Under the pieces are notes generated by a model, which worked only from the letters and a program-made list of their open reading frames with translations, made no database searches and had not been told where the DNA came from. Shown here piece by piece: positions 3,646 through 57,177 of a stretch of 64,000 bases of DNA (position 1 is its first letter; the number at the start of each line of letters is the position of its first letter). Both the position numbers and the translations under genes were made by a program. The DNA is from an uncultured Bacilli bacterium (GTDB taxonomy: Bacteria > Bacillota_I > Bacilli_A > RF39 > UBA660): positions 3,739 to 67,738 of the forward strand of contig CALVQQ010000002.1 in NCBI GenBank assembly GCA_944358255.1. The letters run 5' to 3'.

Positions 3646-4695
3646 TTAAAATTCTTTTGTTAGTTCACCCATTTGACTTGTTGGTATAAATCCAGGTTCA
3701 GCCATTATTACATCTGGTATTCTATTTACTATCGTTGCACATGTTAGTTCAACTGTTTGTGGTTTAGCAATTGTTAAATTTGTAGTTGGTTCACCAATAA
3801 CTTCCCAGTTGTTACAATCGTAATCTTCTTCTGAATATACTTTTCCAATACATTCAGTTTCTAATGTTATGCCTTCTTCGGTTGTCGTTGTTACTATTGC
3901 TCGCATTCCTGTACAGTTTCCAGTTTTAATAGTCATGTTTAATGTACTTGATGTGATGTCGTGGTCGCAAAATGTTGGTATGCATTTTTGACTTTGTTTT
4001 GTTATTGTTAAACCTAATTTATCGCATAACCATCCATTTACATTCCACATATAACTTGGTAAGAATTCTCCATTTTCAATTAGTTTTTGTCTTTCTTCAT
4101 TTGATATATTATCTGCAGCTGCAATTTCTTTTTCAAAATCTTCTTTTGTTAATCCAGCCCCGTGTGCTTTTGCAAGTGCAATTCCATAATCTTCTACATT
4201 ATATGAACTGCTTCCTTTAATAGTTGTTATTTTTTGACTTGCCCCTACAAGAGTTGTAATTAAATTTCCCCAAAAGGCATCTTGATATCCGCTTCCTGTA
4301 ATTGTGCAGTTGTTTTCTTTTGCTAATTTGTCTATTTCCATAGTTAGTTTAGGGGAAGAGTTAAATGGGTAAAATGCTTCTTCACAGGTTGTAATAGCAT
4401 TTATACCTAATTTTGCACATAGTAATAAAGCATCTTTGCAGTCGTTCATTAAACTCATCGTTGTAATAATACAAATATCTGGATTTGATTCTTTTAATAA
4501 TGTTTCTGCTTCAGTAACATTTTTTACTATTGTTCCTGTTTTATCACATCCAATTATTTCTGAAATGTCTTTTCCAATTACGTCTGGATTAATATCTATT
4601 GCACCTACAATTTTGCCACCATTTTCTAAAATGTAGCGCATTATATAGACTGACATTTTTCCACATCCGTATTGTACTACTTTAATGTTTTTCAT
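3646..4695 (-). CDS. DapB-like NAD(P)-binding oxidoreductase (possibly 2,4-diaminopentanoate dehydrogenase family)
   Basis: N-terminal Rossmann motif VVQYGCGKMS and an overall DapB-like layout. The specific function is not resolvable by eye. Confidence 0.45.
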   Translation of the reverse strand: MKNIKVVQYGCGKMSVYIMRYILENGGKIVGAIDINPDVIGKDISEIIGCDKTGTIVKNVTEAETLLKESNPDICIITTMSLMNDCKDALLLCAKLGINAITTCEEAFYPFNSSPKLTMEIDKLAKENNCTITGSGYQDAFWGNLITTLVGASQKITTIKGSSSYNVEDYGIALAKAHGAGLTKEDFEKEIAAADNISNEERQKLIENGEFLPSYMWNVNGWLCDKLGLTITKQSQKCIPTFCDHDITSSTLNMTIKTGNCTGMRAIVTTTTEEGITLETECIGKVYSEEDYDCNNWEVIGEPTTNLTIAKPQTVELTCATIVNRIPDVIMAEPGFIPTSQMGELTKEF

Positions 4696-4845
4696 TTTAT
4701 ACCTTCCTTTCTTATATTTTTATTATAGCATTTATAAGTATTTTTATTTATTTTTACTTTGTTTGTTTACATTTTTTTACTAATTATAGTGGTTATAAAT
4801 ATCACATTTATTTATTTTTCATACATTATTATAGAGGTGAAATGC

Positions 4846-5127
4846 ATGAATGATAGGGTGTTAACTGGAATTGTAATAGATGCTGGGCATGGCGGAGTAG
4901 ATGGCGGAGCTTCAGGAAATGGTATAGTTGAAAAAGATTTAAATTTGTTAATAAGTACTTATATGTATGATCGATTTAGAGAATTAGGTGTGCCAGTTAA
5001 AATGACTAGAACTACGGATGAAACTTTAGATTCATCTGAAAGGGTGGATAGAATTCTTGACGCTTATGGGAATGGGAAAGATGTTATAGTTATTTCTAAT
5101 CACATAAACGCCGGAGGACATACTTAG
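4846..5127 (+). pseudogene. 5' fragment (about 93 aa) of a cwlC-like N-acetylmuramoyl-L-alanine amidase (Amidase_3), interrupted by the inserted element
   Basis: RBS AGAGGTG lies 6 nt upstream of ATG 4846. IVIDAGHGGVDGGASGNG matches the CwlC N-terminus (IDPGHGGSDPGATGNG). The fragment ends ...ISNHINAGGHT*, in the middle of the conserved SIHVNSGGGTG block. Confidence 0.7.
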
Positions 5128-5290
5128 CTCATACAACGATTAAATTTATAAGGGTATTAAGACGGCTATATTTAAACAAAAAGAATTTGTTAATAAAGCT
5201 ATACTAAAATTAAGTTTTTAAACTTAAAAAGGCTGTAAAATAAAGAATTTTTAGTATATTTAACTTCAAATGTTAAAAAACACCAAATTT

Positions 5291-5301
5291 TGCTGTATAA
5301 T
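5291..5301 (+). promoter_or_regulatory. Extended -10 promoter element TGCTGTATAAT upstream of the 576-aa gene
   Basis: TGnTATAAT match 70 bp upstream of ATG 5373. No convincing -35 was seen. Confidence 0.3.
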
Positions 5302-5313
5302 GTATTTAAGAAT

Positions 5314-5356
5314 AGCAGTATCATTCTTTTTTAAGATGGATACTGCTTATTTTTTT
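5314..5356 (+). terminator. Terminator-like hairpin with T-run in the leader of the 576-aa gene (possible attenuator, or a terminator used in the circular form)
   Basis: 9-bp stem AGCAGTATC/GATACTGCT with a 16-nt loop, followed by TATTTTTTT, located between the -10 and the RBS GAGGTG. Confidence 0.35.
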
Positions 5357-5372
5357 GAAGTGAGGTGTAGTA

Positions 5373-7103
5373 ATGGCAAAGAAAAAATATGAAACACAAT
5401 TCAGTATATACAAAGTTGATTATAGTCACTCTGTAAAATATTTAAAAGAGGATCAAGGAATTGAAAGTAAAACATATGAAGAACTAGAAAAAAATATTTT
5501 AGATACAATTAAAGGCATGATTTTAAAAAAAGAAAGAAATGAAGTAGTTGATGTAAGAAATGATTACTTTAAAGGTGTAGTTTTTAGAACTTATCATTAT
5601 CCAACTTGGTATGGTGTGATTAATAGCATCGTAGATGAAAAAATTGATATATCAAATACTCATATTTCTTATGTCTTATCTTATTTAAAAGATGATAATC
5701 TGTTTTTACTAACTGGAGGATTAGGAAGTAATTATATTACAGAATTTACTCAAAAAAATTACGGCTTATATTTATTGCCTAAAATGTTGAAAGAAAATAG
5801 TCCTGTCATAAAATCGGTTTTGGAAAATAAAATGTCTGGCAATAGGCTGTCTAGTAAACATTCAAATAGAAACGTAACAACAATTAATACAGAAAATGAT
5901 ATGAGCTCAATATTTAGAGAACTTTCTTTAGAAATTGATAAAGAAATAATAAATAAATTAGGTATAAATACAGATGAAAATAAAAAGTCAAAGAATTTAA
6001 ATCTTATTGCAAAGGATTCCTTCGTTATAAGAAAATCTATAACAATAGAGAATTTAATGAAGGTTTTAGATCAACTGATAAAGGTTGAAAAAAATAAAGA
6101 TAATTTTTCTTTAGGTTATTTTGTTGATGTGAAAAAGCACGGATATTCTTCAAAAAAATTAAATGAACTTCTTATTAAAATTTTTATTGAAAAGAAGATT
6201 GATAATTTTATTTTAGTAGGGGATGACTATTCAGATTATTGCGTAGGTGGAAATAGATATGTTATTAAAGATGTGGATGAGAAGGTTATATATGAAAAAG
6301 AAAGTCCAATAACAATAGAAGACTTATTTGAAAATTGCCTGCCTGACAATATTACAAAGTCAGCAATAGAAAAATTATTAAAATATAATTTAACTGTTTA
6401 CAACGATACAGATACTATTTTGTTCCCTATAAAACTAAAACAAAGTATACAAGGATACATAGAAAATGAAGAAAAGATTCCTTTTTTTCTCTTTAACGGT
6501 AATTGGTTAATGTTTGATACTAATTATATTGATAACCTTGATAATGAGTATAAGAAAAACTATATTGATTTGATTAAAATAGACAAAAAATTGGCTGATA
6601 TTATTACTAATAAAAATCCTGAATTAACAGAAGATTCATATAATAAAGAATTTTCACAATCTAATGATCTTATAGTTGCACATACTGTTTTAAGCAATAA
6701 TATAGAACTTGCTGATTTAATTTATTTTGATAATGATAATTTATATTTGATACATAACAAGTCAAAATTTCAAGGTAATGGTGCTAGGGATGTATTAAAT
6801 CAGATTTTAACTTCAGCAGAATTTATAAATCACTATCTAATGGAAAAAGATAAAAGAGAAATTTTTGGTAAATATTATCATGATATTATAAAAAAATATC
6901 CCAATAATAATAAAATTAAAACTTTAACAGAAGATGAATTTGTTGACTTATTTAAAAAGCCTAACATATATTATATTGCAGGTTTTATGGAAGGACTTTC
7001 AGATAGCTCTGAATCAAATTATGCCAAGTATATTACTTTGGATGCTAGTAAAAAACTTAAAGAAAAAGGATATAATCTATTATTATTTAATATAAATTAT
7101 TAG
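5373..7103 (+). CDS. Hypothetical 576-aa protein of unknown function; candidate accessory or defence gene on the island
   Basis: Long uninterrupted ORF with RBS GAGGTG and its own promoter. No P-loop, HNH, HEPN or other family signature was recognisable by eye. Confidence 0.75.
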   Translation: MAKKKYETQFSIYKVDYSHSVKYLKEDQGIESKTYEELEKNILDTIKGMILKKERNEVVDVRNDYFKGVVFRTYHYPTWYGVINSIVDEKIDISNTHISYVLSYLKDDNLFLLTGGLGSNYITEFTQKNYGLYLLPKMLKENSPVIKSVLENKMSGNRLSSKHSNRNVTTINTENDMSSIFRELSLEIDKEIINKLGINTDENKKSKNLNLIAKDSFVIRKSITIENLMKVLDQLIKVEKNKDNFSLGYFVDVKKHGYSSKKLNELLIKIFIEKKIDNFILVGDDYSDYCVGGNRYVIKDVDEKVIYEKESPITIEDLFENCLPDNITKSAIEKLLKYNLTVYNDTDTILFPIKLKQSIQGYIENEEKIPFFLFNGNWLMFDTNYIDNLDNEYKKNYIDLIKIDKKLADIITNKNPELTEDSYNKEFSQSNDLIVAHTVLSNNIELADLIYFDNDNLYLIHNKSKFQGNGARDVLNQILTSAEFINHYLMEKDKREIFGKYYHDIIKKYPNNNKIKTLTEDEFVDLFKKPNIYYIAGFMEGLSDSSESNYAKYITLDASKKLKEKGYNLLLFNINY

Positions 7104-7420
7104 TAGTTTATGAAGGTATAGAATAATGCATTTACATTTTATAGACTGCAAAACAAAGAAAAATAATATATTGATTATCTTGGCTTAATAATTAATTAAT
7201 ATTTCAATGATGAGATAATATAAATAATTTAAAGTATTAAAAATGTGAATTAAATGATACTAAATATAAGTTTAATTTTCCCAAAGAATTATAGTAATTT
7301 GAGTTGATGAAAAATCACTCTTTTTTTTTATGAGATTTGTTGAATATAAATTAATTTTAATGTATAATTATATTAACTATTAAGCTAATAAGCATATATG
7401 TTAATATAATGGAGGAATTT

Positions 7421-7789
7421 ATGGCTAAAATCACTTTAGGAAATTTTATTGTCAAAAAGAGAAAGAATATGAAATTGTCGTCTAGGCAATTAGCTTTAGC
7501 ATGCGAAGTAACACCAGCATATATGAATGATATAGAAAAAAGTAAAAGAATCCCATCTTCTGAGGTATTAACAAGAATAGCTATGAAATTAAAGTTGGAT
7601 GAAAAAGAAGTTTATCAATTATTTGATTTAGCAGTTGATGATAATAAAGGTAAGGTTTCTTATGATATTGCAGAATATATAATGAATAATGATGAATTGC
7701 GACAATGTATTAGATATGTAATAAAGATTAAAGATAATAGTATATGGAAAAAAATGTTAAACGAAATTAATCAGGAGGGCCAATTATGA
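7421..7789 (+). CDS. XRE-family HTH transcriptional regulator, a putative controller (C) protein of the R-M module
   Basis: HTH segment SSRQLALACEVTPAYMNDIEKSKRIPS. GGAGG RBS at 7411-7415 favours ATG 7421 over the track start at 7409. The stop overlaps the m5C methyltransferase start (ATGA at 7786-7789). Confidence 0.7.
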   Translation: MAKITLGNFIVKKRKNMKLSSRQLALACEVTPAYMNDIEKSKRIPSSEVLTRIAMKLKLDEKEVYQLFDLAVDDNKGKVSYDIAEYIMNNDELRQCIRYVIKIKDNSIWKKMLNEINQEGQL

Positions 7790-8793
7790 AAAAGTATACA
7801 TATATAGATTTATTTGCAGGAGCGGGAGGAATGTCATTAGGTTTTAATAATGCTGGCTTTAAAAATCTTTTAGCAATTGAATGTAATAAAGATTTTGCTG
7901 AAACTTATAAAAAAAATTTTCCTAAACATAATTTGCTAATTGACGATATAAAAAATGTAACTGAAAAACAAATTCGTGATATAATTAAAAATGAGAGGGT
8001 AGATGTTATAATAGGTGGACCACCTTGTCAAGGATTCTCAATTGCAGGAAATATTGGTAGAAATTTTATTGATGATGATAGGAATAGGTTATTTAAAGAG
8101 TTTGTAAGATTTGTTAAAATTATTAAACCTAAAATATTTGTTTTAGAAAATGTAGCTGCTATGGAAAGACACAATAAAGGAAGGACTATAAAAGAGATAG
8201 TTTCATCTTTTGCAGCAATTGGTTATGATATAAAGTACAAAGTTCTTAATGCTGTTAATTATGGTGTTCCACAAGAAAGAAGAAGAATATTTATTGTTGG
8301 TACACTTGGAGAAAATAGATTTGAATATCCTAATAAAGATAATAAGATTGTAACTATAAAGGAAGCAATTGATGATTTGCCTAAATTAGGTAATGGAGAA
8401 AATAGTAATATTCCTAATCATACAGCTATGAAACACTCTGCCCAAATGTTAGAAAAAATGAGTTACGTTTCAGATGGTGGTAATAGAAATGATATACCAG
8501 AAAAATTAAGACCTAAGTCGGGAGACAGTAGAAAATATATAAGATATAATAGTAAAAAACCGTCTTTTTGTGTTACTGGAGATATGCGAAAGATATTTCA
8601 TTATAGTCAAAATAGAGCTTTAACATGCAGAGAATTAGCTAGACTGCAGACTTTTCCAGATACATTCATATTTGTAGGTAATGCCGGCAAAGTTCAACAG
8701 CAAATTGGTAATGCAGTTCCAGTATTATTGGCCAATAAAATAGCTTTACAAGTAAAAGAGGTGTTAGATCATGAGCAAATATCCGAAGATTAA
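7786..8793 (+). CDS. DNA (cytosine-5)-methyltransferase
   Basis: Motif I DLFAGAGGMSLGF, motif IV GGPPCQGFS, motif VI FVLENV, and motif X QIGNAVPV. Confidence 0.9.
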   Translation: MKKYTYIDLFAGAGGMSLGFNNAGFKNLLAIECNKDFAETYKKNFPKHNLLIDDIKNVTEKQIRDIIKNERVDVIIGGPPCQGFSIAGNIGRNFIDDDRNRLFKEFVRFVKIIKPKIFVLENVAAMERHNKGRTIKEIVSSFAAIGYDIKYKVLNAVNYGVPQERRRIFIVGTLGENRFEYPNKDNKIVTIKEAIDDLPKLGNGENSNIPNHTAMKHSAQMLEKMSYVSDGGNRNDIPEKLRPKSGDSRKYIRYNSKKPSFCVTGDMRKIFHYSQNRALTCRELARLQTFPDTFIFVGNAGKVQQQIGNAVPVLLANKIALQVKEVLDHEQISED

Positions 8794-9784
8794 TTATATT
8801 GGAAATAAAAATAAGTTAACTGATTGGATAGTGGATAATTTTCCATTTAAAGAGGGGACTGTTTTAGATCTTTTTTGTGGTGGCTGCTCAGTATCTTATG
8901 CTTTAAAGGAAAAAGGTTATAGAGTATATTCAAATGATGCTTTATATTCAAATTTTGTTTTAGCAAAAGCTATTATAGAAAATAGTAATGTAATCTTAAA
9001 AACTGAAGATTTTGATTTCGATATCCCGAAAAAAGAAATATTAAAAAAGTATAAAGAAATTAGTTTTTTAGAAAATAGACTATATTTTCCAAATGAAGTA
9101 GAAGAATTAGCTGAGTTAGTATGCAAATCAGAAAAATTAGAAAACTATAAGAAATATTTATTTTTATCTTTAATTAGAAGATCGATGATTAGAAAAATAC
9201 CATATTCAAGGATGAATGTTCCTTGGGATCAAATTGTTAAATTAAGGGATGAAGATTATAGTTATGCTAAATATAAAAGAAGAAGAGCGTATCATAATCT
9301 GCCTTTTATAGACCATATTTATGATAATTTAGATAATTATAACGATTCTGTGTTTAATAATAATCAGGATAATAAAGCATTTAATAAAGATGCATTTGAA
9401 ATGATAAATAAATTGACTGAAAAGGTTGATATTATTTACATGGATCCACCATATCCTGCTACGATGAATAAATATGGAGATTTTTATGGAATGTATGATA
9501 GTATTTTTAATAAAGAGATTAATTATATAAATTTTTCAGAGAACAATAAATTTTTGGAAAATTTAGAAAAATTAATTGTGAAATGTTTGCCTAAAACTAA
9601 ATATATAGTCATTAGTGAAAACAATAAAACAAAACCATCAATTTCAGAGATTAATAATATGTTAAGTAAATATGGTAAAGTAGAAATAAAAGAAAAAAAG
9701 CATCAATACAAAGTTACAAATAAGGAAAATAAAAATGAAACTGTTGAAGTGTTAATTATTTTGCAAGTTAAAGAAAACAAGTAA
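8771..9784 (+). CDS. DNA N6-adenine methyltransferase, D12/Dam-like class (DPPY)
   Basis: N-terminal YIGNKNKL (Dam WAGGK-like), FCGGCSV motif I, and DPPYPAT motif IV. It overlaps the upstream methyltransferase by 23 nt. Confidence 0.7.
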   Translation: MSKYPKINYIGNKNKLTDWIVDNFPFKEGTVLDLFCGGCSVSYALKEKGYRVYSNDALYSNFVLAKAIIENSNVILKTEDFDFDIPKKEILKKYKEISFLENRLYFPNEVEELAELVCKSEKLENYKKYLFLSLIRRSMIRKIPYSRMNVPWDQIVKLRDEDYSYAKYKRRRAYHNLPFIDHIYDNLDNYNDSVFNNNQDNKAFNKDAFEMINKLTEKVDIIYMDPPYPATMNKYGDFYGMYDSIFNKEINYINFSENNKFLENLEKLIVKCLPKTKYIVISENNKTKPSISEINNMLSKYGKVEIKEKKHQYKVTNKENKNETVEVLIILQVKENK

Positions 9785-9812
9785 TCACTAGTCTTGATTA
9801 CTTGTTTTCTTT
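9770..9812. terminator. Bidirectional intrinsic terminator between the convergent methyltransferase and restriction endonuclease genes
   Basis: Perfect 18-bp inverted repeat AAAGAAAACAAGTAATCA / TGATTACTTGTTTTCTTT with a 7-nt loop, spanning both stop codons. Confidence 0.7.
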
Positions 9813-10973
9813 ATCAATTTCATCTTTATAAAGATTATCAACTTCTTCTTTACATTTTAATGCTTTTTCTTTGAATTTATTTCTATGCCATTCTAAATAT
9901 TTTAATCTGTCGGGATTAAGTAATTTTTTATCTAGTTTAAAAGTACTAATCCACTGTAATATATCAATATCATGGATTTCATAGTCATTAACCAGTACCA
10001 TACCATCATTATCAAATGAAATATCATATTTATCAAAATATGCATCTACTTGAGTAGATAGTAAAAGCCCGTTATTATAGTCGTATGCTTCATCAATGTT
10101 TCCCTCAGACAAACATATACTGGAGTCTTTTATATGTGAATGTACCAATCCTTTCAACTCTTTTTTTTGAATATAACAAACTTTTTTTCCAAAAAATTTT
10201 ATAGACTCTTTATCTAAGCCATCTTTGTAAATACTATAAAGAATAGGATCTCTTTTTGTATCAACTACTATATTGCTTGGATCAATGAACCAAACTCCCG
10301 TATCTTTATTTGCAGAAATATTTGGCATAAGGTTTAAAAAGTAAATTAGATAATTAATTTGATTATATTTCTTTTTGTCAAATTTAATTGTAGAAGCATA
10401 TTTATATTGTTCTTCTAATTCATTTTTTGTCAAATATCCCTTACTGATTTGTTCAATAGGAGTAACCATTAATGCAATTACATCAATTTTTGATAATTTC
10501 TTTTCTGGGTGATATACTAACGTTTTTAAAAGAAAATCAATTTCTTTTCGATTAGTATTATCTTTTGAATAAGAAGAACAAAAACTAGATGAAGTGTAAA
10601 AGATTTCTGAAAATATATTTCTTTTTTGATTCTGGTCGTCAGCAGATAAAAATTTCCTTGCAAGTTTATGATAACCATTATAAAAAGGCTTAACAAATCC
10701 TAACTTTATAAATTGATTTATTGATTTTCTTGTAGAAGCTTGATCTCGTTTTTGATAAATTCTATTTATTTTTTCTTGAAGTTCTTTATTTAATTTTTCA
10801 TGTTTACAATTTTCACTTAAAATTTCTCTGTTTTCATCAATAAAATCTAAAATTATTCTAAGTGTATTATTAAATCTTAAGTCAAAGATATCAATATATT
10901 CAAGAGTAAACGACCAATATTTATCATATTGCTGATTTTCAATTTTCTTTTTGGTACGAAATAATTTGCTCAT
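9798..10973 (-). CDS. HNH-family restriction endonuclease (HNH_2-like C-terminal domain)
   Basis: C-terminal LVHSHIKDSS...NGLLLSTQVDAYFDKYDISFD matches the AHI...NGLLL...H/D..FD pattern of HNH restriction enzymes. It is convergent with the two methyltransferases. Confidence 0.6.
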   Translation of the reverse strand: MSKLFRTKKKIENQQYDKYWSFTLEYIDIFDLRFNNTLRIILDFIDENREILSENCKHEKLNKELQEKINRIYQKRDQASTRKSINQFIKLGFVKPFYNGYHKLARKFLSADDQNQKRNIFSEIFYTSSSFCSSYSKDNTNRKEIDFLLKTLVYHPEKKLSKIDVIALMVTPIEQISKGYLTKNELEEQYKYASTIKFDKKKYNQINYLIYFLNLMPNISANKDTGVWFIDPSNIVVDTKRDPILYSIYKDGLDKESIKFFGKKVCYIQKKELKGLVHSHIKDSSICLSEGNIDEAYDYNNGLLLSTQVDAYFDKYDISFDNDGMVLVNDYEIHDIDILQWISTFKLDKKLLNPDRLKYLEWHRNKFKEKALKCKEEVDNLYKDEIDKENK

Positions 10974-11238
10974 GTTATTTCACCTCTATTAAATTATAAC
11001 ATGAAATTAACAAAATTAATAATTTCTAATAGCAAAACTAAAAAATTAGGCTAGTTTGAGCACAAAAAAGCATTTTTTTGCATCACTTAGTCATTGACTT
11101 CTATTGGTCAAGTGGTAAAATATAGTAAAATGAAATAATTAGCTGGTGAGAACTATGTCTATATTATTTCATTTTTTTGTTATCTTTATCTCGGTTTAAT
11201 AACTGGGATTTTTTTGTGCACAAATTTTGATAACAAAT

Positions 11239-11437
11239 CCTACTATCCTACTATTTTTTTGTATTTTTCAAAAGTAGGATGGTATATAAGATATTAATTA
11301 TCTTATAAAATAAGAATAAAACTACCGATGATCCTTAATATCAACCTATATAGTAGGATTAATTTCGTAAGTACGAAATAAGAATGGCACCATTAAATTT
11401 CCTTAGTTTATAAGGAATTTTTTAGTTTATGGTGCCA
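11239..11437. promoter_or_regulatory. Palindrome-rich intergenic region with a repeated 8-mer, lying between the restriction endonuclease gene and the HTH/recombinase genes
   Basis: CCTACTAT tandem pair at 11239-11254. The inverse AGTAGGAT occurs at 11273-11280 and 11352-11359. Palindrome ATAAGATA-TTAAT-TATCTTAT at 11286-11306. TTCGTA-AG-TACGAA at 11364-11377. 10-bp inverted repeat ATGGCACCAT/ATGGTGCCAT at 11384-11393 and 11428-11437. Confidence 0.3.
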
Positions 11438-11512
11438 TCTTCTTATGCTCCTAATTTATAATTTGATATTTTTAAAGGGAAATTCATCCTAATTAGAAAG
11501 GAGGTATTATAA

Positions 11513-11776
11513 ATGGATTATGAACAATATATAAAAGTACCATTAGCAGTAATAACAGATAAAAATCTTAAATCTAGTTCTAAAGTTTTATTTAGCTTAT
11601 TGATAATACTAGTACAACAAGAAGGATATTGTTTTGCTGGAAATGATTATTTAGCTGAAAAGTTAAATACAAGTAATAGAACTATTTCAAGATTATTAAA
11701 AGAATTATCTGACATAGGTTATATTAAAATGGAATTTAAACATAAATTTCAAAGAAAAATATATATTATTAAATAG
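11513..11776 (+). CDS. Small HTH-domain protein of 87 aa (regulator, or candidate recombination directionality factor)
   Basis: HTH-like segment GNDYLAEKLNTSNRTISRLLKELSDIGYI. RBS AAAGGAGG. It lies upstream of the recombinase. Confidence 0.55.
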   Translation: MDYEQYIKVPLAVITDKNLKSSSKVLFSLLIILVQQEGYCFAGNDYLAEKLNTSNRTISRLLKELSDIGYIKMEFKHKFQRKIYIIK

Positions 11777-12204
11777 CCAAAAATATCATAACTTTAGACA
11801 ATGTTATTTAAGTCAATGTACATGTTTTTCTTTTTCAATGGTACTCTGTGTCTACAATAATATAATAAATATAATATAAAAAATTTAATTATATAAATTT
11901 AAAATATTTAAATAAGTTTTAAATATTAACATACTTAATCAAAATTAATTAAGGAAAGGAGTGGATATAAGTATGAAAAAAATATCAATAATGAATAATT
12001 TAAACATAAATTTAAATAGGTGGTTTAAATATGGAAGGAGCCTATTTGAATAATATTTCATTTAAAGATCTTATTTTAAAATATCTTATCGAAGAGATAA
12101 TAAAAGAAACAAAAGGAGAATTATCTAATTAATGATTTGCATATTTAATTTTATGATGCTATCATGGATGAGTCTTAATACCCGATTAAAAGAAGGAGGT
12201 AAAA

Positions 12205-13872
12205 GTGTATAATAAATCGGGAATAGATTTCAATGTAGGAATCTATATAAGATTATCTCAAGAAGATAAAGATAAAGATAAAAAATATGAATCTGATAGT
12301 GAAAGTGTAATTAATCAAAGAGAATTATTAACTAATTATGTTAAAAATAATAATTTTAACTTAATAGGAGAATATGTTGATGATGGATATTCTGGCACTG
12401 ATTTTGAAAGACCTGGTTTTCAAAAATTAATTGAAGATATAGAAGAAAAAAAGATTAATTGTGTAATAGTAAAAGATTTATCAAGATTAGGTAGAGATCA
12501 TATTAAGACAGGGTATTATATGGAAACATATTTTCCTGAAAAGAACGTAAGGTTTATATCTATATTGGAATCATACGATAGTTTTAAAAATCAAGCTAGT
12601 AATGATTCTTCAACATTTATAATTGCATGTAATGATTACTATAGTAAACAAAATTCTATTAAAATTAGAAATGTATTAAATGAAAAAAGAAAAAGTGGCA
12701 AATTTGTAGGAAGTTTACCATGCTTTGGATATATGAGAGATCCTGAAGATAAGGGACATTTAATACCAAACCCAGAAACTGCTCCTATAGTTAAACAAAT
12801 ATTTGAATGGAGAAAAAATGGTATTGGTCCATCTAGAATAGTTACTATGCTAAACGAAAAAGGATATCCAACACCTAGTGGATATAAAAAAACAAATTAT
12901 TCTACTAGGCTAATAGTAAGAGATACATGGAACATTTCTTCTGTAAAAAAGATATTAAGCAATAGAATATATACTGGAGATATGGTTCAACATACTCAAA
13001 CTAAAGTTAATTATAAATCTAAGAAAAAAATCACACTAGACCAAAGTATGTGGATGATAGTAGAAAATACACATGAAGCATTAGTTGATAAAGAAACATT
13101 TAAATATATTTCGAATTTAATAAAACAAAATAAAAAAGATGTTAGGCCTAAAAACAGAAGAATAATTAGGGATTTAGAAGGACTTCTATTTTGTAAAGAG
13201 TGTGGTAACAGATTAAGTGTTTTATATAGAAAAAATTTAGATTACTGGAGTGTTAATTGCAATAGATACTCTAGAGACCCATTAAGAAAAAGATGTGAGC
13301 CACACTTTTTTCCTTATAATTATTTAGAAGATCAAATAGTAGAAAAAATAAAATCAAACATAAAAATAAAAATTGAAAATTTAAATATAGAAGAATTAAA
13401 TAAGAGAGTTGCTAGTGAAGTACGAAAGCAAACTAAAGATATAAATAAAAATATAAGTTCTTTAATGAGTGAAAAAGAACAGATAACAAGTAGATTAACT
13501 TCATTATATGAAGATAAATATAATGGTATTATTAATGCAGATACTTATATGGAATTAGCAAAACCCTTTGAAGAAAAGTTACACCAAATTAATGAAAGCA
13601 TTAACAATGATAAAATAAGGGAATATGAAATAAAAAATAAATTAAAAGAATTACCTGATTATACCAAAAAAATAAAAAAGCTATTAGATTTAAATAAGCC
13701 TAGAAAAGAATTAATACATACATTAGTAGATAAAATAGTGATAGATAAAAATAGAATTATAACGATTAAATATAAATATGGTGTGATACCAGACTGTACG
13801 TTTGAATATCAAAATTTAAACTTAGCTCGTAACCCTTATGGTAGAAAAGGAAAGAATCAATATAATAAATGA
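12205..13872 (+). CDS. Large serine recombinase (resolvase/invertase catalytic domain plus recombinase and zinc-ribbon/coiled-coil C-terminal region)
   Basis: N-terminal VGIYIRLSQED catalytic serine motif and DLSRLGRD. 555 aa. C-terminal Cys cluster CKECGN...CNRYS. GTG start with GGAGG RBS. Confidence 0.9.
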   Translation: MYNKSGIDFNVGIYIRLSQEDKDKDKKYESDSESVINQRELLTNYVKNNNFNLIGEYVDDGYSGTDFERPGFQKLIEDIEEKKINCVIVKDLSRLGRDHIKTGYYMETYFPEKNVRFISILESYDSFKNQASNDSSTFIIACNDYYSKQNSIKIRNVLNEKRKSGKFVGSLPCFGYMRDPEDKGHLIPNPETAPIVKQIFEWRKNGIGPSRIVTMLNEKGYPTPSGYKKTNYSTRLIVRDTWNISSVKKILSNRIYTGDMVQHTQTKVNYKSKKKITLDQSMWMIVENTHEALVDKETFKYISNLIKQNKKDVRPKNRRIIRDLEGLLFCKECGNRLSVLYRKNLDYWSVNCNRYSRDPLRKRCEPHFFPYNYLEDQIVEKIKSNIKIKIENLNIEELNKRVASEVRKQTKDINKNISSLMSEKEQITSRLTSLYEDKYNGIINADTYMELAKPFEEKLHQINESINNDKIREYEIKNKLKELPDYTKKIKKLLDLNKPRKELIHTLVDKIVIDKNRIITIKYKYGVIPDCTFEYQNLNLARNPYGRKGKNQYNK

Positions 13873-13970
13873 TTTATCACTATTAATTTAGTGATTTTTT
13901 TATATAGCTAATTTGGTATTTTCGACTTTTGGGTTTATAATGAATTTAATCAAAGGAAAGGAGGAGTACT

Positions 13971-14222
13971 ATGAATCGAGAATATAATGAGAATATGAAT
14001 AAAATTTTTATTGATGGATTAAAAATATACTTAGAATCACATCTAAATGAAAAAAATAAAAAGGTATATAAAGCAGTGGAATCTTCAGTTAATTTTTTAG
14101 AGTCAACAACAAAATTAACTCCAGAAGAATCGAGAGAATATCAAGATATTATAATAAAAATAGTAGGTATTGATGTTATTCAAAGGGTATTTAATAATGT
14201 AACAACTGGTAGTATACGATGA
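13971..14222 (+). CDS. Hypothetical 83-aa protein at the right edge of the island (candidate recombination directionality factor)
   Basis: ORF with RBS AGGAGG that ends about 15 bp before the predicted attR junction. No recognisable domain. Confidence 0.4.
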   Translation: MNREYNENMNKIFIDGLKIYLESHLNEKNKKVYKAVESSVNFLESTTKLTPEESREYQDIIIKIVGIDVIQRVFNNVTTGSIR

Positions 14223-14231
14223 ACGAGCTAA

Positions 14232-15377
14232 TCTTGTGGTGGAGATGGTGCTGAAGTAATATATGCTCTTAGAAATACTAGTACTTTATCTTCTAAAATA
14301 CTTAATGAGTTAGAAAAAGAAGGTCAAAATATTAGAAAAAATTATCAACAAAGATTGCCAAGTAATCCTTCAAAAGATTATTATTTTATTCATAGAGAAA
14401 CGCCTAATACTGAAGCAATAATTGTTGAATATGGTTTTTTAGATAGTTCTAAAGATGATGTTAATCAATTAAAAAATAATTATAAAGATTATGCGGAAGC
14501 CGTTGTAAGAGCCGTTATGGATTATAAAAATTTAAATTATATAGCGCCTGTAGATAGTGGATATTATACGGTACAGAAAGGTGATAGTTTGTGGAGTATA
14601 GCAAATAAATATGGTATTACAGTAGATGAATTAAAAAAACTTAATAATTTAAGTAGTAATATTATAAATGTAGGGCAGACTTTAAAAGTCCAAAAAGAAA
14701 ATGAAATTGCGCCAAGCGATTATCTAATTTATACGGTACAGAAAGGCGATAGCTTGTGGAGCATAGCAAATAAGTATGATACAACGGTTGAAACTATAAA
14801 GAAACTCAATAATTTAAGCGGAACAACTTTACAAATAAATCAACAATTATTAATTCCTAAAGAAGAGGATTTAGATATAAACGTTGGCGAAGATAGTCAA
14901 ATTATCTATAAGGTTAAAAGTGGCGACAGTTTATGGAAAATTGCCAATAGTTATGGTATAACAGTAGATGAACTAAAAAAAGCAAATAATTTATCATCTG
15001 ATTTATTAAGCATTAATCAAGAACTTATTATTCCTGTTAAAACAACGACTGTTGAGCCTGATGAAGGAGAAGAAATTGATGAGATTAAATACGTTGTAGT
15101 TAAGGGTGATAATTTGTACAGTATAGCTAATAAATATAATGTTACAGTCGATGAAATAAAAGAAGCAAATAAGTTATCTTCAAATATTTTAAGTATTGGT
15201 CAAATTTTAGTAATTCCTGGCACAAAAGATTATGCTAATTATACTGTACAAAAAGGTGATAGTTTATGGAAAATTGCTAATAAATATGGTGTTACTGTTA
15301 ATGATATAATGAAAGCAAACAATTTAAATAGCAGTAATTTATCTATTGGACAAGAATTAATAATTCCAACAAAATAA
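14232..15377 (+). pseudogene. 3' fragment of the cwlC-like amidase: the rest of the Amidase_3 domain plus five LysM repeats
   Basis: The frame opens at 14232 (SCGGDGAEVIYALRN...), continuing the Amidase_3 alignment (GGGTGFESYIY in CwlC). Five LysM units follow (Y.V..GDSLW.IA.KY..TV...). The M at 14355 in the ORF track is internal. Confidence 0.7.
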
Positions 15378-15400
15378 AAAATGTGATTAATTCACATTTT
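15378..15400. terminator. Bidirectional terminator hairpin between the amidase 3' fragment and the convergent sleB-like gene
   Basis: 9-bp stem AAAATGTGA/TCACATTTT flanked by A and T runs. Confidence 0.5.
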
Positions 15401-15823
15401 TTAGTGTAATTCTTTACAAACTCCTGGATCAGGTTGGTAAAAACAATGGCTTTTATATCTTCCAGAAAGTGTTTGACCATACCATGTGGTTTTGCAAGAT
15501 GATGTGCCAGAGGGAGCGTAAAACCATAGAGCATTTGTTGCCGGATGGTAATACTCACCTTTTAATACTCTTTCTGCAAGTGATTTCTCTTTTGTGGTTG
15601 CAGAACTGTAAAACAATGAATTATTTATACCACTAAATTGATTGTTTTGATATATTACATCAGTAATTGTCCTTAAATTTGAAAAGGTTAAGCAATCTGC
15701 GATGGCCCTGTTAACTATAACATTTCCTACCATCAGCATGCCTAAGTCGCCTTCACTTAACGCTTCTGCTCTCATTAATCTTGCACACAAATCAAGTTCT
15801 TTATTAGTGTAATTAATTAGCAT
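15401..15823 (-). CDS. SleB-type cell wall hydrolase (Hydrolase_2 catalytic domain; spore cortex-lytic family)
   Basis: LCARLMRAEA...GMLMVGNVIVNR...YQNNQFSG...WYG pattern of the SleB C-terminal domain. Confidence 0.75.
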   Translation of the reverse strand: MLINYTNKELDLCARLMRAEALSEGDLGMLMVGNVIVNRAIADCLTFSNLRTITDVIYQNNQFSGINNSLFYSSATTKEKSLAERVLKGEYYHPATNALWFYAPSGTSSCKTTWYGQTLSGRYKSHCFYQPDPGVCKELH

Positions 15824-15922
15824 TTATATCACCTATTTAATAATATGTAAATAAAATGATTTTGACATAAAAATACATCATTGAAAAAGGTATTTTTATA
15901 TGATATAATCTTTCCATCTGTT

Positions 15923-15996
15923 AGGGGTATAATATAATGGTAGTATTAGCGTCTCCAAAACGCTCCGTTCGGGTTCGAATCCTGATACCCCTGCCA
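15923..15996 (+). tRNA. tRNA-Trp (anticodon CCA)
   Basis: Cloverleaf with acceptor AGGGGTA/TACCCCT, anticodon stem AGCGT/ACGCT with loop CTCCAAA, T-loop TTCGAAT, and 3' GCCA. Confidence 0.85.
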
Positions 15997-25726: not shown

Positions 25727-27679
25727 TTGCAAAAAGATATATTTGATGATCTTGTAGTTGTGAAAAGAAGTGGTCAAAGAGTTAATTTTAATAGTTATAA
25801 AATAGCTGTTGCAATTAAAAGCGCCTTTGATAGTGTTTATGATAATAGTGATGAATCTAATATTAATAAAGTTTATGAAAAAGTTTTAAAATATATAGAA
25901 AATAATTATGAGAATAGAAAAACAATAAATGTTGAAGATATTCAAGATATTATTGAAGCTATGTTACAGGAAGACAAATATTTTGAAGTTTATACGGCTT
26001 TTAGTGAATATAGGAAAAAAAGGGCTATTAGTAGAAAAATATTTACTCAAAAACAACAGCATAAATTTTTAAAAGCTATTGAAAAAATAAACGATGATAA
26101 TGTTTTACTAAGTGATAATACGTTTAAACTTAATGATGTGGTTGTTAAATATGGGATGACGGTTATTAATGAAATAACAAAATCTTATATAATAGATAAT
26201 AAATATCTTAGAGAGCATGATGAAGGAAATATTTTTATTCATGATATGTGTAATTTTTCTTTAGGTAGATTATCTAATATTCATATCGATATGACTGAAT
26301 ATTTAAGAAATAATTCTTTTGATAGTTTTATTTACTATTTGAAAAGTTTAGGTACTGAAGTAAATGGCGAAATTAGTATTCCAGCTTTGGATAAGTTGTT
26401 AGAACAATATTGCTTGCAGACATTTAAAAAGATTTATATTGATTATTTGTCTAAGTATTTGAAAGTATCCGGATTTGATCAATATATTAATTTAAATAAG
26501 ATAATTGAAATGGTTAATAAAGAATCAGATATAATGTTTGAGATGTCTAACTATTCAATATATATGTTATCTTCTCAAGTTGAAAATATATTTAGTCAAG
26601 CTTATAAAGATAGTGTTGATAAATGTAAAAATGACTTTTATTTGAATATTAAAAATCTATTTTGTACTTTGGATGCTTCAAATAGGAAATATTCATTTAG
26701 TTTTGGTACTAGTTCTAATTATATAGGTTCATGTTTAAATAAAATAATTATTGAAGTTTTAAATGAGTTAGATAGATTAAGTAATGTTTCTGCAACATTT
26801 AAATATAATCAGATTAATAAAGATTATTTGAAAGAAATTTGTTCTTTAGTACTTAATGGAAAAAATGTTCTTATTGCTAATCTAAATGCTTCATATAACA
26901 AGAATATAAATGAAGTTGAATATTTCTCTGATGGTGTTAGAATTTTTGAAAATAATAATGATGATGAGAGTGGTTCTGTTGGTAGAATGATGATTGCAAT
27001 TACTTCTATTAATTTTGCTAGATTAGGATTAGAATTTGAAAATGATACAATAAAGAATTTTTATAATAAATTAGATTTTGCGTTAGAAACTGTTAAAAAT
27101 GAATTGTTGTTGACTTTTGAAACCATTGGAAATAAGAATAAAGATAATTATGATTATTTGTTTAATAATAACGTAATGAGTGATCAAAAACTTGAAAATG
27201 GGCAAAAGATAAGAAAAGTTATAAAAAATGGTGATTTATTAATCGGTGTGATAGGTTTAAAAGAGTGCGTTAATCTTTTGGAAAAGGATGAGAGTAAGCA
27301 ATTATCTTTGCTTAGAGATATATTAAAGTTTTTAAATTATAAGTGTTTAAACTATCGTGAAGAAACAAGATTAAATTTTTATATTAACGCGCCTTATGAA
27401 AGTTTGGCTGCGAAGGAATTGATGACTTTGGATAAATCTATTTATGGAATAAGAAAAGAAATAAGAAATAAATATAGTTATGATTCTGTATATAATTTAC
27501 CCATTTTAAAAGATGATTATAAGAGTATTGGTGAAATACAAAAGTTTATCAGTGGCGGAAGTGTTTATGAAATAAAGTTAAATAAGAGTATGAGTATTAA
27601 TAAACTTGAAGAAATGATACTTACTTTGTTTGATAATGATATAGGATTGTTAAAGTTTAGAAGTAAGGAAGTGACTTGA
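25727..27679 (+). CDS. NrdD-like paralog: ATP-cone plus class III RNR-like core, lacking the catalytic cysteines and glycyl-radical tail
   Basis: N-terminal ATP-cone (VVVKRSGQRVNFNSYKIAVAIKSAF) and NIFIHDM resembling NrdD DIHLHDL. No CC thiyl motif, no Zn ribbon, no RxxGY. TTG start with GGAGGTG RBS. Confidence 0.55.
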   Translation: MQKDIFDDLVVVKRSGQRVNFNSYKIAVAIKSAFDSVYDNSDESNINKVYEKVLKYIENNYENRKTINVEDIQDIIEAMLQEDKYFEVYTAFSEYRKKRAISRKIFTQKQQHKFLKAIEKINDDNVLLSDNTFKLNDVVVKYGMTVINEITKSYIIDNKYLREHDEGNIFIHDMCNFSLGRLSNIHIDMTEYLRNNSFDSFIYYLKSLGTEVNGEISIPALDKLLEQYCLQTFKKIYIDYLSKYLKVSGFDQYINLNKIIEMVNKESDIMFEMSNYSIYMLSSQVENIFSQAYKDSVDKCKNDFYLNIKNLFCTLDASNRKYSFSFGTSSNYIGSCLNKIIIEVLNELDRLSNVSATFKYNQINKDYLKEICSLVLNGKNVLIANLNASYNKNINEVEYFSDGVRIFENNNDDESGSVGRMMIAITSINFARLGLEFENDTIKNFYNKLDFALETVKNELLLTFETIGNKNKDNYDYLFNNNVMSDQKLENGQKIRKVIKNGDLLIGVIGLKECVNLLEKDESKQLSLLRDILKFLNYKCLNYREETRLNFYINAPYESLAAKELMTLDKSIYGIRKEIRNKYSYDSVYNLPILKDDYKSIGEIQKFISGGSVYEIKLNKSMSINKLEEMILTLFDNDIGLLKFRSKEVT

Positions 27680-28362
27680 TGGAAATAAGCGGTTTTGAAA
27701 AAATGACTTTAACTGATTATCCTGGTTTTGTCGCGGCTATTGTTTTTACTCAAGGTTGTAATTTTAAATGTCCTTTTTGTCATAATAGTGATTTAATCTA
27801 TTTCAAGAATGGTGCGATTGATGAAAATGAGATTTTAGATTATTTGAGTAAACGTAAAAAAATGCTCGATGGTGTAGTTATTACTGGTGGGGAACCAACT
27901 ATGCAAAAAGATGTAGTTAGTTTTTTAAATAAGGTGAAAGAACTGGGATTAAAAGTTAAATTGGATACTAATGGTGCTAAACCTGAGGTTATAAAAAAAA
28001 TAATAGAATTAAATTTGATTGATTATATTGCAATGGATATAAAAAGTAGCAAGAATAATTATTCAGTAGTAAGTGGGGTAAGTGTTGACTTAGATAAAAT
28101 TTCTGAAAGTGTAAAACTTATAAAAGAATCTGGATTAGACTTTGAATTTAGAACAACGGTTGTTAGAAATTATCATACTTTAAATGATTTGTTAAGTATT
28201 TGTGAATTTGTTGGTAAAGATTCTAAATATTTTTTACAAAATTTTGAAAGTAGTTCTAGGGTTTTAGATGCTAATTTAAAAGCATTTACAAAAGATGAAC
28301 TTTTAGAAATGTGTGCTAAATTAAATGAGAAATTTCCTAATGTTAAAGTTAGAGGAATATAA
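27676..28362 (+). CDS. nrdG: Anaerobic ribonucleoside-triphosphate reductase activating protein (radical SAM)
   Basis: FTQGCNFKCPFCHN radical-SAM cysteine motif and VVITGGEP. Confidence 0.85.
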   Translation: MMEISGFEKMTLTDYPGFVAAIVFTQGCNFKCPFCHNSDLIYFKNGAIDENEILDYLSKRKKMLDGVVITGGEPTMQKDVVSFLNKVKELGLKVKLDTNGAKPEVIKKIIELNLIDYIAMDIKSSKNNYSVVSGVSVDLDKISESVKLIKESGLDFEFRTTVVRNYHTLNDLLSICEFVGKDSKYFLQNFESSSRVLDANLKAFTKDELLEMCAKLNEKFPNVKVRGI

Positions 28363-28392
28363 AATTATACAGGTGATTAGGAGGAGAAAGTT

Positions 28393-38372: not shown

Positions 38373-38506
38373 AAAATCACCACAATTTTATTGTATCATT
38401 AAAAATGGATAATGGACAATATATTTTTTATTCTTTACATATAAAATGATGTTATTCGCCTTTTCCTAGTATAAAAGACTACATATTATACAGTAGGAGG
38501 TATTTT

Positions 38507-39034
38507 ATGTATTTTGATGAAAGAGAAAATTATTTGGATTATGTTGGTGAAGCGGTAAATAATTATGTTGAGGTAGAGGATAAGGATCATAATGAACTTA
38601 ATAATCATGAGACATATCATTTTAAAAATAATAAGATATATGATATTAATAATATAAATATTAATAATTATAGAGATAATATGTCAATTGATTTAAGTAT
38701 GCCCAAAGATGCGTTAAATAAAGGTGGAATATTTAAAAATATTTATGACCCATATAAAAATTATGTTTATAAAGTGGTCGTTAGTGGTGAAAGGGATGAA
38801 TTGTTATTAAAAATTCAAGAATTAACTTTTGCTATGAAAGATTTAGGATTGTATTTGGATGTTTATCCAAATAATACAGATATTTTTGATATTTTTAAAA
38901 GTTATGAAAAAGAATTAAAGGAATTAAAAAAGACTTATGAAGGTAAATATGGCCCTTTAAATTCGTTTGATGTTGAAGGAAGTAAATATGAATGGTATTT
39001 AAATCCATGGCCATGGGATAAAGGGGGTAATTAA
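38507..39034 (+). CDS. CotJA-CotJB fusion-like spore coat protein
   Basis: Middle segment SMPKDALNKGGIFKNIYDPY is CotJA-like. The C-terminal LYLDVYPNNTDIFDIF...YGPL is the CotJB motif. Confidence 0.5.
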   Translation: MYFDERENYLDYVGEAVNNYVEVEDKDHNELNNHETYHFKNNKIYDINNININNYRDNMSIDLSMPKDALNKGGIFKNIYDPYKNYVYKVVVSGERDELLLKIQELTFAMKDLGLYLDVYPNNTDIFDIFKSYEKELKELKKTYEGKYGPLNSFDVEGSKYEWYLNPWPWDKGGN

Positions 39035-39035
39035 T

Positions 39036-52878: not shown

Positions 52879-52923
52879 ATCACTTTAATATAAAAAATCA
52901 TATATTATATTAGGTGATTTTTT

Positions 52924-53253
52924 ATGTTATTAAATGGTAATAGAGAAATGGTTGAAACTCCTTTTTATAGTGTATATGTTGTGGTGAATGGTGATACATT
53001 ATATAAGATAAGCAAAGATTTTAATGTTAATCCTAAACTGTTAGCTGAATTAAATGGCTTAAAATTAGATGAATATATATATCCTAATCAGGTGTTGCTT
53101 ATTCCTAAAAAAGGTGTCCAATTTTATATAACTAAAGATGATGATACTTTGAGAGATGTTAGTAAAATTTTCAATGTTAGTGAAGATAATATTGTAAAAC
53201 AAAATAAAAGTATTTATTTACTTCCAGGGCAAATGATATTTTATAAAGATTAA
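52924..53253 (+). CDS. Tandem LysM-domain protein
   Basis: Two LysM units (YVVVNGDTLYKISKDF...; YITKDDDTLRDVSKIF...). Confidence 0.7.
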   Translation: MLLNGNREMVETPFYSVYVVVNGDTLYKISKDFNVNPKLLAELNGLKLDEYIYPNQVLLIPKKGVQFYITKDDDTLRDVSKIFNVSEDNIVKQNKSIYLLPGQMIFYKD

Positions 53254-57144: not shown

Positions 57145-57177
57145 TAAAATTTAATCATATATTTAAAGGGAGGAAAT

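Follow-up and report, generated by a model that had tools for sequence, protein, structure and literature searches.

What has been inserted into the amidase gene of an uncultured RF39/UBA660 Bacilli bacterium, and why there? The 64,000-nt stretch of contig CALVQQ010000002.1 that we analyzed (assembly GCA_944358255.1, positions 3,739-67,738; hereafter "the window") carries two amidase fragments separated by about 9 kb of DNA that encodes a serine recombinase and a restriction-modification (R-M) system. An earlier reading of the bare sequence, here called the original prediction, had placed at 5118-14240 a minimal integrative element that is moved by a serine integrase and carries defence cargo. 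We find that the insert is almost certainly an integrated defence element mobilized by a large serine recombinase (LSR). As to why it sits in this gene, we lean slightly towards an explanation in which the element occupies a CwlC-like amidase gene and is excised during development.

The boundaries of the element were set by an empty site. A contig from the same species (locus L093; 92-93% nucleotide and 97% amino acid identity) aligns to window positions 4664-5117 and 14238-15378, and the two alignments share exactly 2 bp, GG. An overlap of exactly 2 bp is what a serine-recombinase crossover leaves behind, and it places the insert at 5118-14239 (plus strand; 9,122 bp when one copy of the GG core is counted), which agrees to within 1 bp with the interval first proposed. 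The flanks are the two halves of a single gene for a protein with an Amidase_3 domain and five LysM repeats. The 5' fragment (4846-5117, plus strand; ATG at 4846; Amidase_3, E value 4.5e-17) ends on the crossover GG (5116-5117) and, in the split state, runs into the element to a stop at 5125-5127. The 3' fragment (14238-15377, plus strand) begins with the GG core (14238-14239) and encodes the remainder of the catalytic domain and the five LysM repeats. Neither fragment has frameshifts or stops, and joining them at the core restores the catalytic-domain motif NHINAGGGDGAEV. Excision in silico yields AAC GCC GGA GGT GGA GAT GGT, or NAGGGDG, the motif of all intact orthologues; a typical uninterrupted gene reads AAT CAC ATA AAT GCA GGT GGT GGC GAT GGT GCT GAA GTA (NHINAGGGDGAEV). 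An intact amidase found by protein search (P0270, encoded on the L093 contig) is 97% identical to the rebuilt one. Judged from these alignments, integration splits the amidase gene and precise excision would restore it. An apparent 3.6-kb insert at another locus, L036, was rejected, as it proved to be two tandem amidase paralogues.

The attachment sites can be read from the same junctions. The DNA that codes for NHINAGGGDGAEV in the Amidase_3 and LysM gene is attB, and the host-specific attB junction contains AACGCCGGAGGTGGAGATGG. The reconstructed attP is GAGCTAA-TCTTGT-GG-ACATAC-TTAGCTC, with 7-bp inverted repeats that stand 6 bp to each side of the core; the attP junction sequence is GCTAATCTTGTGGACATACTTAGC. 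Crossover falls on the GG of the second glycine codon, as expected from the earlier proposal of a short core inside the glycine codons. Identical junctions are found in independent ENA, Logan and JGI assemblies.

Near-identical copies of the element occur in other samples, with 99.4-99.5% nucleotide identity at L081, L083 and L084 and 97.8% at L082; samples in which the element is present include ERZ24773342, ERZ24773231, ERR4096386 and ERZ28614520. In these four contigs the similarity to the window ends about 27 bp outside the junction. The junction itself is identical, and the 250-bp amidase flank is only 56-58% identical at L081 and L083. An element that is 99.4% identical within amidase alleles of about 56% identity points to recent horizontal movement. 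The left end of the window element is joined to further amidase alleles at L094-L098. Its conserved non-coding part (5118-5372, plus strand; the P' arm and about 250 bp) is common to elements with different cargo: over this interval only, identity is 96% at L098, 87% at L096 and 75% at L097, and at these three loci the match to the window is confined to the first 260-370 bp past the junction, with other cargo beyond. The L098 element carries a module of a C5-cytosine (m5C) methyltransferase gene, a 378-codon gene and an ASCH gene that is otherwise known from L029. These comparisons indicate that cargo modules are exchanged between elements and that the window element has recently been mobile between hosts.

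The amidase gene is a recurrent target. When the rebuilt amidase was used as a query against one genome per species and the 80 best loci were compared as representatives of RF39-type species, the gene was uninterrupted in most of them, and in at least 14 it was split at the same codons. In nine of these (L024, L029, L064, L066, L072, L073, L077, L079 and L080) the 3' fragment is directly preceded by the gene for an LSR with 50-70% identity to that of the window. Three different elements (those of the window, L029 and L024) and the empty site L093 are found on amidase alleles that are 97-98% identical in protein. The elements share a compact architecture (5.7-9.6 kb) with intact defence modules, and the LSR is the sole gene present in all of them. 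Their cargo varies: Gabija (GajA 8.7e-140, GajB 3.2e-110) with an N6-methyltransferase and an S subunit at L064 and L079; a complete type I R-M system and a retron-type XI reverse transcriptase-protease (3.6e-149) at L072; an Eco57I-like methyltransferase and a specificity subunit, a type I-like pair, at L077; two m5C methyltransferases and a MutH/Sau3AI-like nuclease at L066 and L080; an m5C methyltransferase, an ASCH protein and open reading frames (ORFs) without assigned function at L029; and toxSAS-Panacea, nSTAND3 and a PLD-DUF3427 helicase at L100-L108. At L034, where the insertion is in a second amidase paralogue, SIR2-HerA adjoins the same controller, methyltransferase and nuclease genes as in the window (72-88% and 67% identity). 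This locus (L034:9989-21050) has two tandem paralogues, of which the first is intact and the second is split by the sister element, with SIR2-HerA followed by the controller, m5C, N6-adenine (m6A) and HNH module at 82% nucleotide identity to that of the window. Cargo ORFs of 198, 254 and 378 codons (L029:1977-3339 and 4648-5784) and of 285 codons (L024:2921-3778) gave no convincing Pfam or PADLOC match, the 285-codon ORF having been scanned with Pfam alone and the 254-codon ORF having one weak PADLOC match (6e-4). All four are candidate defence genes; the 378-codon ORF follows an m5C methyltransferase gene and may encode its nuclease.

A second LSR family, about 30% identical to the window LSR, has inserted in the same gene at its DAGHGG motif (L010, L018, L038, L040, L060 and L062), where the crossover also falls in Gly-Gly codons. 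These elements have their own HTH_36 gene and a micro-ORF of 47 codons (MEVVYNVKYKFKN...). At L010:836-10010 the second-family element, about 9.1 kb long, has the attL GATGCTGGGCATGGAGGA|ATAGG. L081 (second-family part L081:1-4423) has both insertions, so that its amidase gene is in three pieces.

Recombination in the window element centres on the LSR gene (12205-13872, plus strand; 555 residues, GTG start), whose product has a resolvase domain (PF00239, 7e-22, residues 13-166), a Recombinase domain (PF07508, 2.2e-23, residues 190-309) and a zinc ribbon, Zn_ribbon_recom (PF13408, 5.6e-9, residues 324-383). In a PHROG scan of five element proteins it matches the PHROG 95 integrases (1.3e-95), and among proteins of solved structure it is closest to the TnpX catalytic domain (4.3e-28) and to SprA of SPbeta (1.8e-16). 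Both the domain order and the length are those of a phage-type serine integrase, with which the 2-bp GG crossover and the inverted repeat in attP agree. Upstream lies a gene for an 87-residue winged-helix protein (11513-11776, plus strand; HTH_36, 7.9e-10). HTH_36 homologues are found upstream of the recombinase at L024, L073 and L081 and also at L010, L018, L023 and L038; the gene accompanies the LSR in part of the first family and in the second. The protein is a candidate recombination directionality factor. Another candidate, and the best one for a directionality or regulatory factor, is a conserved micro-ORF that the original prediction had overlooked (12031-12132). Together with a -10-like CATAAATTT and a ribosome-binding site (RBS) it spans 12005-12132 on the plus strand and encodes 33 residues, MEGAYLNNISFKDLILKYLIEEIIKETKGELSN. 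In the first-family lineages examined, the micro-ORF sits immediately upstream of the LSR gene, has 27-50 codons and keeps the core ..(I/E)TFK(D/N)..L...Y(L/I)..; it is retained at L029, L024, L073, L072, L077 and L064.

The last gene before attR encodes an 83-residue ORFan (orf83; 13971-14222, plus strand) that had been counted among the recombination genes. It has only 10 relatives, 88-98% identical, which are the last gene before attR at L100-L104 and lie mid-element among cargo at L105-L108. We rejected orf83 as a directionality factor, since its only relatives travel with cargo modules and may lie far from attR; it is probably cargo or an accessory gene, judging from where these relatives lie, and stands outside the recombination module. 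The partners with which the recombinase is regularly found are the micro-ORF and, among some family members only, the HTH_36 gene. Rfam detected no RNA in the element, its sole matches in the window being four tRNAs outside it. A scan for sigma-70 promoters and terminators gave counts no better than shuffled sequence.

The predicted cargo of the window element is defence, namely an R-M system under a controller (C) protein and a DUF6119/TIGR04141 protein. The R-M module begins with a controller-like HTH_3 regulator (7409-7789, plus strand; 126 residues; PADLOC HTH_VI 1.3e-9, Control_protein 1e-5), whose stop overlaps the start of the m5C DNA methyltransferase gene (7786-8793, plus strand; PF00145 7.6e-83, MTase_II 2.3e-113) in ATGA. 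The end of the latter (8793) is in turn overlapped by the start (8771) of the D12-class m6A DNA methyltransferase gene (8771-9784, plus strand; PF02086 9.7e-28, MTase_II PDLC03385 1.3e-87). Convergent with the methyltransferase genes, and adjoining them, is a gene for an HNH (His-Me finger) type II restriction endonuclease (9798-10973, minus strand; HNH_2 1.4e-5, REase_II PDLC03529 1.9e-64). All of these genes appear intact, and the set is kept at L034, where the regulator is 72% identical and adjoins the same R-M genes, and in Neisseria gonorrhoeae. The N. gonorrhoeae chromosome has the same three enzymes together, with 57% identity for the m5C methyltransferase, 43% for the m6A methyltransferase and 35% for the nuclease, at a locus that we take to be NgoAXVI (GGTGA, HphI-like). 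Systems with asymmetric sites typically have two methyltransferases, one per strand, and the type IIS enzymes HphI, MnlI and Eco31I belong to the HNH class (PMC2816704). Because two methyltransferases of different chemistry suit an asymmetric site, and given these HNH type IIS precedents, we infer from the m5C and m6A pair a type IIS-like system, as would be expected for an asymmetric HphI-like site. Between the nuclease and HTH_36 genes is a long intergenic stretch (10974-11512) in which we found a promoter-like site with a TG-extended -10 (11094-11121), a hairpin resembling a terminator (11188-11209) and, at about 11385-11440, a long inverted repeat (ATGGCACCA...TGGTGCCAT); the stretch has no match in Rfam.

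The first gene of the element (orf576; 5373-7103, plus strand; 576 residues) had been called an orphan. The protein itself has no match in Pfam, PADLOC, NCBIfam or PHROGs, for Pfam and NCBIfam not even at E<=10. It does have relatives, 179 by a word index and 470 as representatives of 50%-identity clusters, all of about 570-600 residues. Full-length relatives at 76% and 71% identity match PF19614 (DUF6119) at 1.3e-21 and 5.5e-18, and remoter ones match TIGR04141, "sporadically distributed protein", at 3.5e-11 and 1.8e-22. Because relatives of the same length class match these profiles, orf576 belongs by transitive homology to DUF6119/TIGR04141 as a divergent member, and the orphan label falls away. 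Invariant residues include E445, D448, H461, K463 and Q477, and a conserved C-terminal motif, ELAD...LIHNK...NQ, faintly suggests a PD-(D/E)xK-like nuclease, an idea that structure searches, which found no fold match in the PDB, did not bear out. No functional literature on DUF6119 or TIGR04141 was found, and a tblastn search of plasmids with orf576 had no hits. What marks the protein as a candidate defence gene is its embedding. At L086-L089 a copy of 71% identity is the first gene inside an interrupted amidase, with Fic, HipA_C and type I R-M genes after it; at L090 a copy is flanked by AAA_15/DnaG-like genes on one side and by Fic, MazE and type I R-M genes on the other; and at L034 the slot held by orf576 in the window element is taken by SIR2-HerA. 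A Fic-domain gene of about 500 codons directly follows the DUF6119 gene at L086:8001-11230 and L090:8001-11246, the window copy having no Fic partner; DUF6119 and Fic could be a two-gene system.

The second part of the question, why this gene, turns on what the amidase does. The amidase consists of a catalytic domain and wall-binding repeats without a signal peptide. CwlC of Bacillus subtilis, a sigma-K-dependent amidase of mother-cell lysis, has the same architecture and likewise no signal peptide. The window gene is preceded by a promoter-like sequence, AC-N14-CATACATTA (4804-4828, plus strand), in which the -10-like CATACATTA at 4820-4828 ends 5 nt before the RBS AGAGGTG. The regions upstream of 41 orthologues diverge in other respects, yet 39 of them place CATAnnnTA shortly before the RBS. 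The fuller AC-N16/17-CATAnnnTA precedes the gene in 34 of 41 species, versus 0.6% of random 100-nt windows; the latter served as the control, and a second one of other ORFs (7.3%) was set aside because it probably contains amidase ORFs. On these features the target looks like a CwlC-type mother-cell sporulation gene. Other Amidase_3 paralogues (L025:4807, L034:1069 and L036:1146) have hydrophobic, CwlD-like N-termini and lack CATAnnnTA; none was seen interrupted.

The motif is not confined to the amidase. A composite of CATAnnnT(A/T), RBS and start codon occurs at six sites in the window versus 0.1 expected in shuffles: before the amidase gene, a cwlJ/sleB-like gene, a cotJB/cotJC-like operon, a gene for a small LysM protein, a MacB-like gene and the micro-ORF that precedes the LSR gene. 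The composite motif may define a mother-cell sigma regulon in RF39. The CwlJ/SleB-like cortex hydrolase gene, a host gene (15401-15823, minus strand; spore_SleB 2.3e-12, below the cutoff; PF07486, Hydrolase_2, on an orthologue), is preceded by CATATTATT and an RBS. Places of the composite motif include 38482-39596, 52899-53253, 15823-15847 and 57156-57178; the LysM protein has 109 residues, the CotJC-like protein belongs to the Mn-catalase family, and the CotJB-like protein has a PWPW motif that was read by eye. A search of the window genes for canonical sporulation genes with NCBIfam found no spo0A, sig or spoIV in the 64 kb and only the cwlJ/sleB-, cotJC- and cotJB-like genes. Relatives of the host belong to the order RF39 (PMC8035907), for which sporulation with a smaller complement of genes has been predicted (PMC10868615).

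Interruption does not seem to have released the amidase from selection. Compared with one another, interrupted alleles have intact frames and a ratio of nonsynonymous to synonymous substitutions (dN/dS) of 0.01-0.05 at dS 0.3-0.77, a pattern consistent with a split gene that stays under purifying selection. Within this species, the cluster of split C-terminal fragments has 49 member sequences versus 3 in the intact cluster, and the interrupted amidase would appear from these counts to be the majority state.

The explanation to which we lean runs as follows. The LSR recombined attP (GAGCTAA-N6-GG-N6-TTAGCTC) with attB in the amidase gene, crossing over at the GG of the second glycine codon. An amidase without a signal peptide and with a predicted sigma-K/sigma-E-type promoter would be required only in the terminally differentiating mother cell, so that insertion would cost the vegetative cell nothing. 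In the mother cell the LSR would excise the element and rebuild the amidase gene, and the forespore would retain the element, as in the case of skin, SPbeta and gin. A small factor would assist excision, the likeliest being the micro-ORF product if it is driven by a mother-cell-type promoter. Taken by itself, developmental excision in the mother cell is in our estimation an evenly balanced proposition.

Several observations weigh against this explanation. RF39 has no cultured member and sporulation there is only predicted; AC-N16/17-CATAnnnTA is the sigma-K consensus of Bacillus and Clostridium and may not be that of RF39; and in the window's own species the spacing between AC and the -10 of the amidase is 14 nt rather than 16-17. 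CATAAATTT and an RBS precede the micro-ORF and LSR genes in six lineages without a recognizable -35, and the CATA motif is missing in the L064-type lineage and in the second LSR family. In ten elements, the 60 nt before each element ORF of at least 50 codons contain no sigma-K-type motif. The LSR catalytic domain is closest to that of TnpX, an enzyme that is not known to need a directionality factor for excision. The low dN/dS could stem from selection in unoccupied periods if elements turn over fast, and the defence role of DUF6119 is drawn from genomic context alone. Finally, an exact search of JGI metagenome contigs and IMG/VR for the attP junction of an excised circle found none, which is weak evidence because assemblies rarely capture such circles.

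Some of these points would be expected if the element were a Tn4451/Tn5397-like LSR transposon or mobilizable element that has simply found safe harbour in a conserved, dispensable autolysin gene. The amidase would then be inactive while occupied, and sporadic excision, catalyzed by the LSR, would serve transfer only and be free of developmental control. We take this alternative seriously without thinking it probable. The resemblance to TnpX, the lack of mother-cell-type promoters before the larger element ORFs and the patchy CATA motif all speak for it, as does the turnover seen in one species with three different elements and an empty site; an attB in a catalytic motif conserved across species would by itself account for a broad host range. 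It leaves aside, however, the sigma-K consensus match upstream of the target in 34 of 41 species, an amidase that resembles CwlC in having no signal peptide, and interrupted alleles that have kept their frames at low dN/dS and seem to predominate in this species. Nor would it lead one to expect the micro-ORF/LSR operon to bear the same rare motif as the spore genes of the window. To our knowledge, moreover, every LSR insertion in a mother-cell gene that has been studied experimentally is excised there (PMC5595907, PMC4191935).

Descent from a serine-integrase temperate phage, as for skin, would make the insert a decayed prophage or the remnant of a phage satellite. The LSR does match the PHROG 95 integrases, the HTH_36 protein is similar to the N-terminal part of phage replication initiators, and defective prophages are common among LSR elements in sporulation genes (PMC5595907). 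We nevertheless regard this origin as very unlikely. Neither the window element nor more than ten sister elements contain a structural, packaging or lysis gene, capsid and tail genes included; megablast of the element against the PLSDB plasmids and INPHARED (50,697 phage records) gave no match; the consistent 5.7-9.6 kb layout with intact defence modules does not look like gene debris; and near-identical copies in different hosts imply that the element is currently mobile. The earlier statement that the insert has no phage structural, replication or conjugation genes stands for structural genes by PHROGs in the five proteins scanned and for conjugation genes by family scans, and must be qualified for replication, where HTH_36 gives one match, restricted to the winged-helix N-terminus of replication initiators. 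That the insert is not mobile at all, being conserved core genome, a pair of unrelated amidase-like genes or an assembly chimera, is next to impossible in our view. All that could be said for it is that composition is only mildly atypical in this low-GC window (about 25-26%): the insert has 24.3% GC versus 26.3%, and its tetranucleotide distance is 0.167 versus 0.115 +/- 0.015 for host chunks of equal size. Set against this are empty sites in the same and related species, fragments that join to a conserved motif with a 2-bp overlap, and identical junctions in independent assemblies. We found neither a core-genome gene order without the recombinase nor amidase fragments of unrelated genes. The original prediction of a minimal, integrase-moved defence element is thus upheld by the empty sites, by the same element in different amidase alleles and by related recombinases with different cargo at the same site; every gene it listed is present where it had been placed.

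The element is an LSR integrative element and possibly also a sporulation gene-intervening element, and of the latter gin is among the closest known. The gin element of Bacillus cereus ATCC10987 is a non-phage element in gerE with R-M cargo, whose excision rebuilds the gene (PMC5595907). Like gin, the window element is non-phage, carries R-M cargo and lies in the coding region of a mother-cell sporulation gene, here a putative one; the serine recombinase GirC and small factor GirX of gin have counterparts in the LSR and, perhaps, the micro-ORF. The two differ in that gin is 28.6 kb long and has three recombinases, a 9-bp overlap and a cultured Bacillus host in which excision was demonstrated experimentally, whereas the window element is 9.1 kb long, has one LSR and a 2-bp core, lies in an amidase gene of uncultured RF39 and would be excised developmentally by inference; its cargo, furthermore, is almost entirely defence. 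With skin in sigK (recombinase SpoIVCA) and SPbeta in spsM (SprA and SprB) it shares LSR insertion in a mother-cell gene, which is a putative one in the window (PMC4191935, PMC5499854, PMC5025042). The promoter of sprB, the directionality-factor gene of SPbeta, combines a perfect sigma-E/K -10 with an imperfect -35 (PMC4191935), an arrangement resembled by the CATAAATTT and RBS before the micro-ORF, and SprA is a detectable homologue of the LSR. Unlike the window element, skin and SPbeta are intact or defective prophages of 48-134 kb with other target genes, and the window element has no homologue of SprB or Skr, its candidate factor being only 27-50 residues long.

Small size (about 6-20 kb), cargo, a single LSR (TnpX or TndX), a circular intermediate and a 2-bp core are features in common with the clostridial transposons Tn4451/Tn4453 and Tn5397. 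Those have a GA core and antibiotic-resistance cargo, together with Mob and oriT in the case of Tn4451 and conjugation genes in that of Tn5397. The window element has a GG core and defence cargo, and its target is a single conserved coding motif; protein-family scans found no relaxase or Mob domain in any element ORF, which places the element outside the Tn4451/Tn5397 type. As in defence islands at integration hot spots, one site next to a recombinase holds variable defence cargo across strains and species, but this site lies within a protein-coding catalytic motif rather than in a tRNA gene or intergenic DNA, and two unrelated LSR lineages use two motifs of one gene. The R-M module resembles the HphI/NgoAXVI- and MnlI/Eco31I-type systems in its HNH nuclease and its one m5C and one m6A methyltransferase (PMC2816704), and differs from them in the 126-residue HTH_3 controller gene before the methyltransferase genes and in the convergent nuclease gene.

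A few features of the neighbourhood are recorded here in their own right. A tRNA gene (15923-15993) lies just past the CwlJ-like gene, about 1.7 kb from attR, and is not the integration site. Between the amidase and the Hydrolase_2 gene, the empty-site contig has a small Fic-domain gene and a 61-codon ORF (L093:1644-2277) that are absent from the window, so the neighbourhood varies even without the element. At 25727-30732 of the window, two NrdD-like anaerobic ribonucleotide reductase genes stand on either side of an NrdG activase gene; the 779-residue product matches NrdD over its full length, and the 650-residue product does so only in two separated stretches.

Taken together, the catalytic motif of this amidase gene is a recurrent integration hot spot within coding sequence that is used by two LSR lineages. 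Several natural sets of LSR, attP and attB can be read from the alignments, and such pairs are wanted as tools for genome engineering. For RF39, an abundant uncultured lineage of the human and animal gut, the hot spot is a natural exchanger of defence cassettes. It also provides defence candidates by context, chiefly DUF6119/TIGR04141 (about 470 clusters at 50% identity) and, in addition, the ORFs of L029 and L024. With more reserve, since we find it doubtful, one might see in these loci an undescribed class: developmentally excised, defence-only elements of RF39 in a sigma-K, CwlC-like amidase gene, with two LSR lineages (at AGGGDG and DAGHGG), a micro-ORF factor of 27-50 residues and a stand-alone anti-phage DUF6119. 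Should the sporulation link fail, the window would hold an ordinary, well-delimited integrative defence island. Should it be true, gene-intervening elements would extend past Bacillus and Clostridium to Bacilli with reduced genomes, and the element would supply a tiny candidate directionality factor together with independent evidence that RF39 sporulates.

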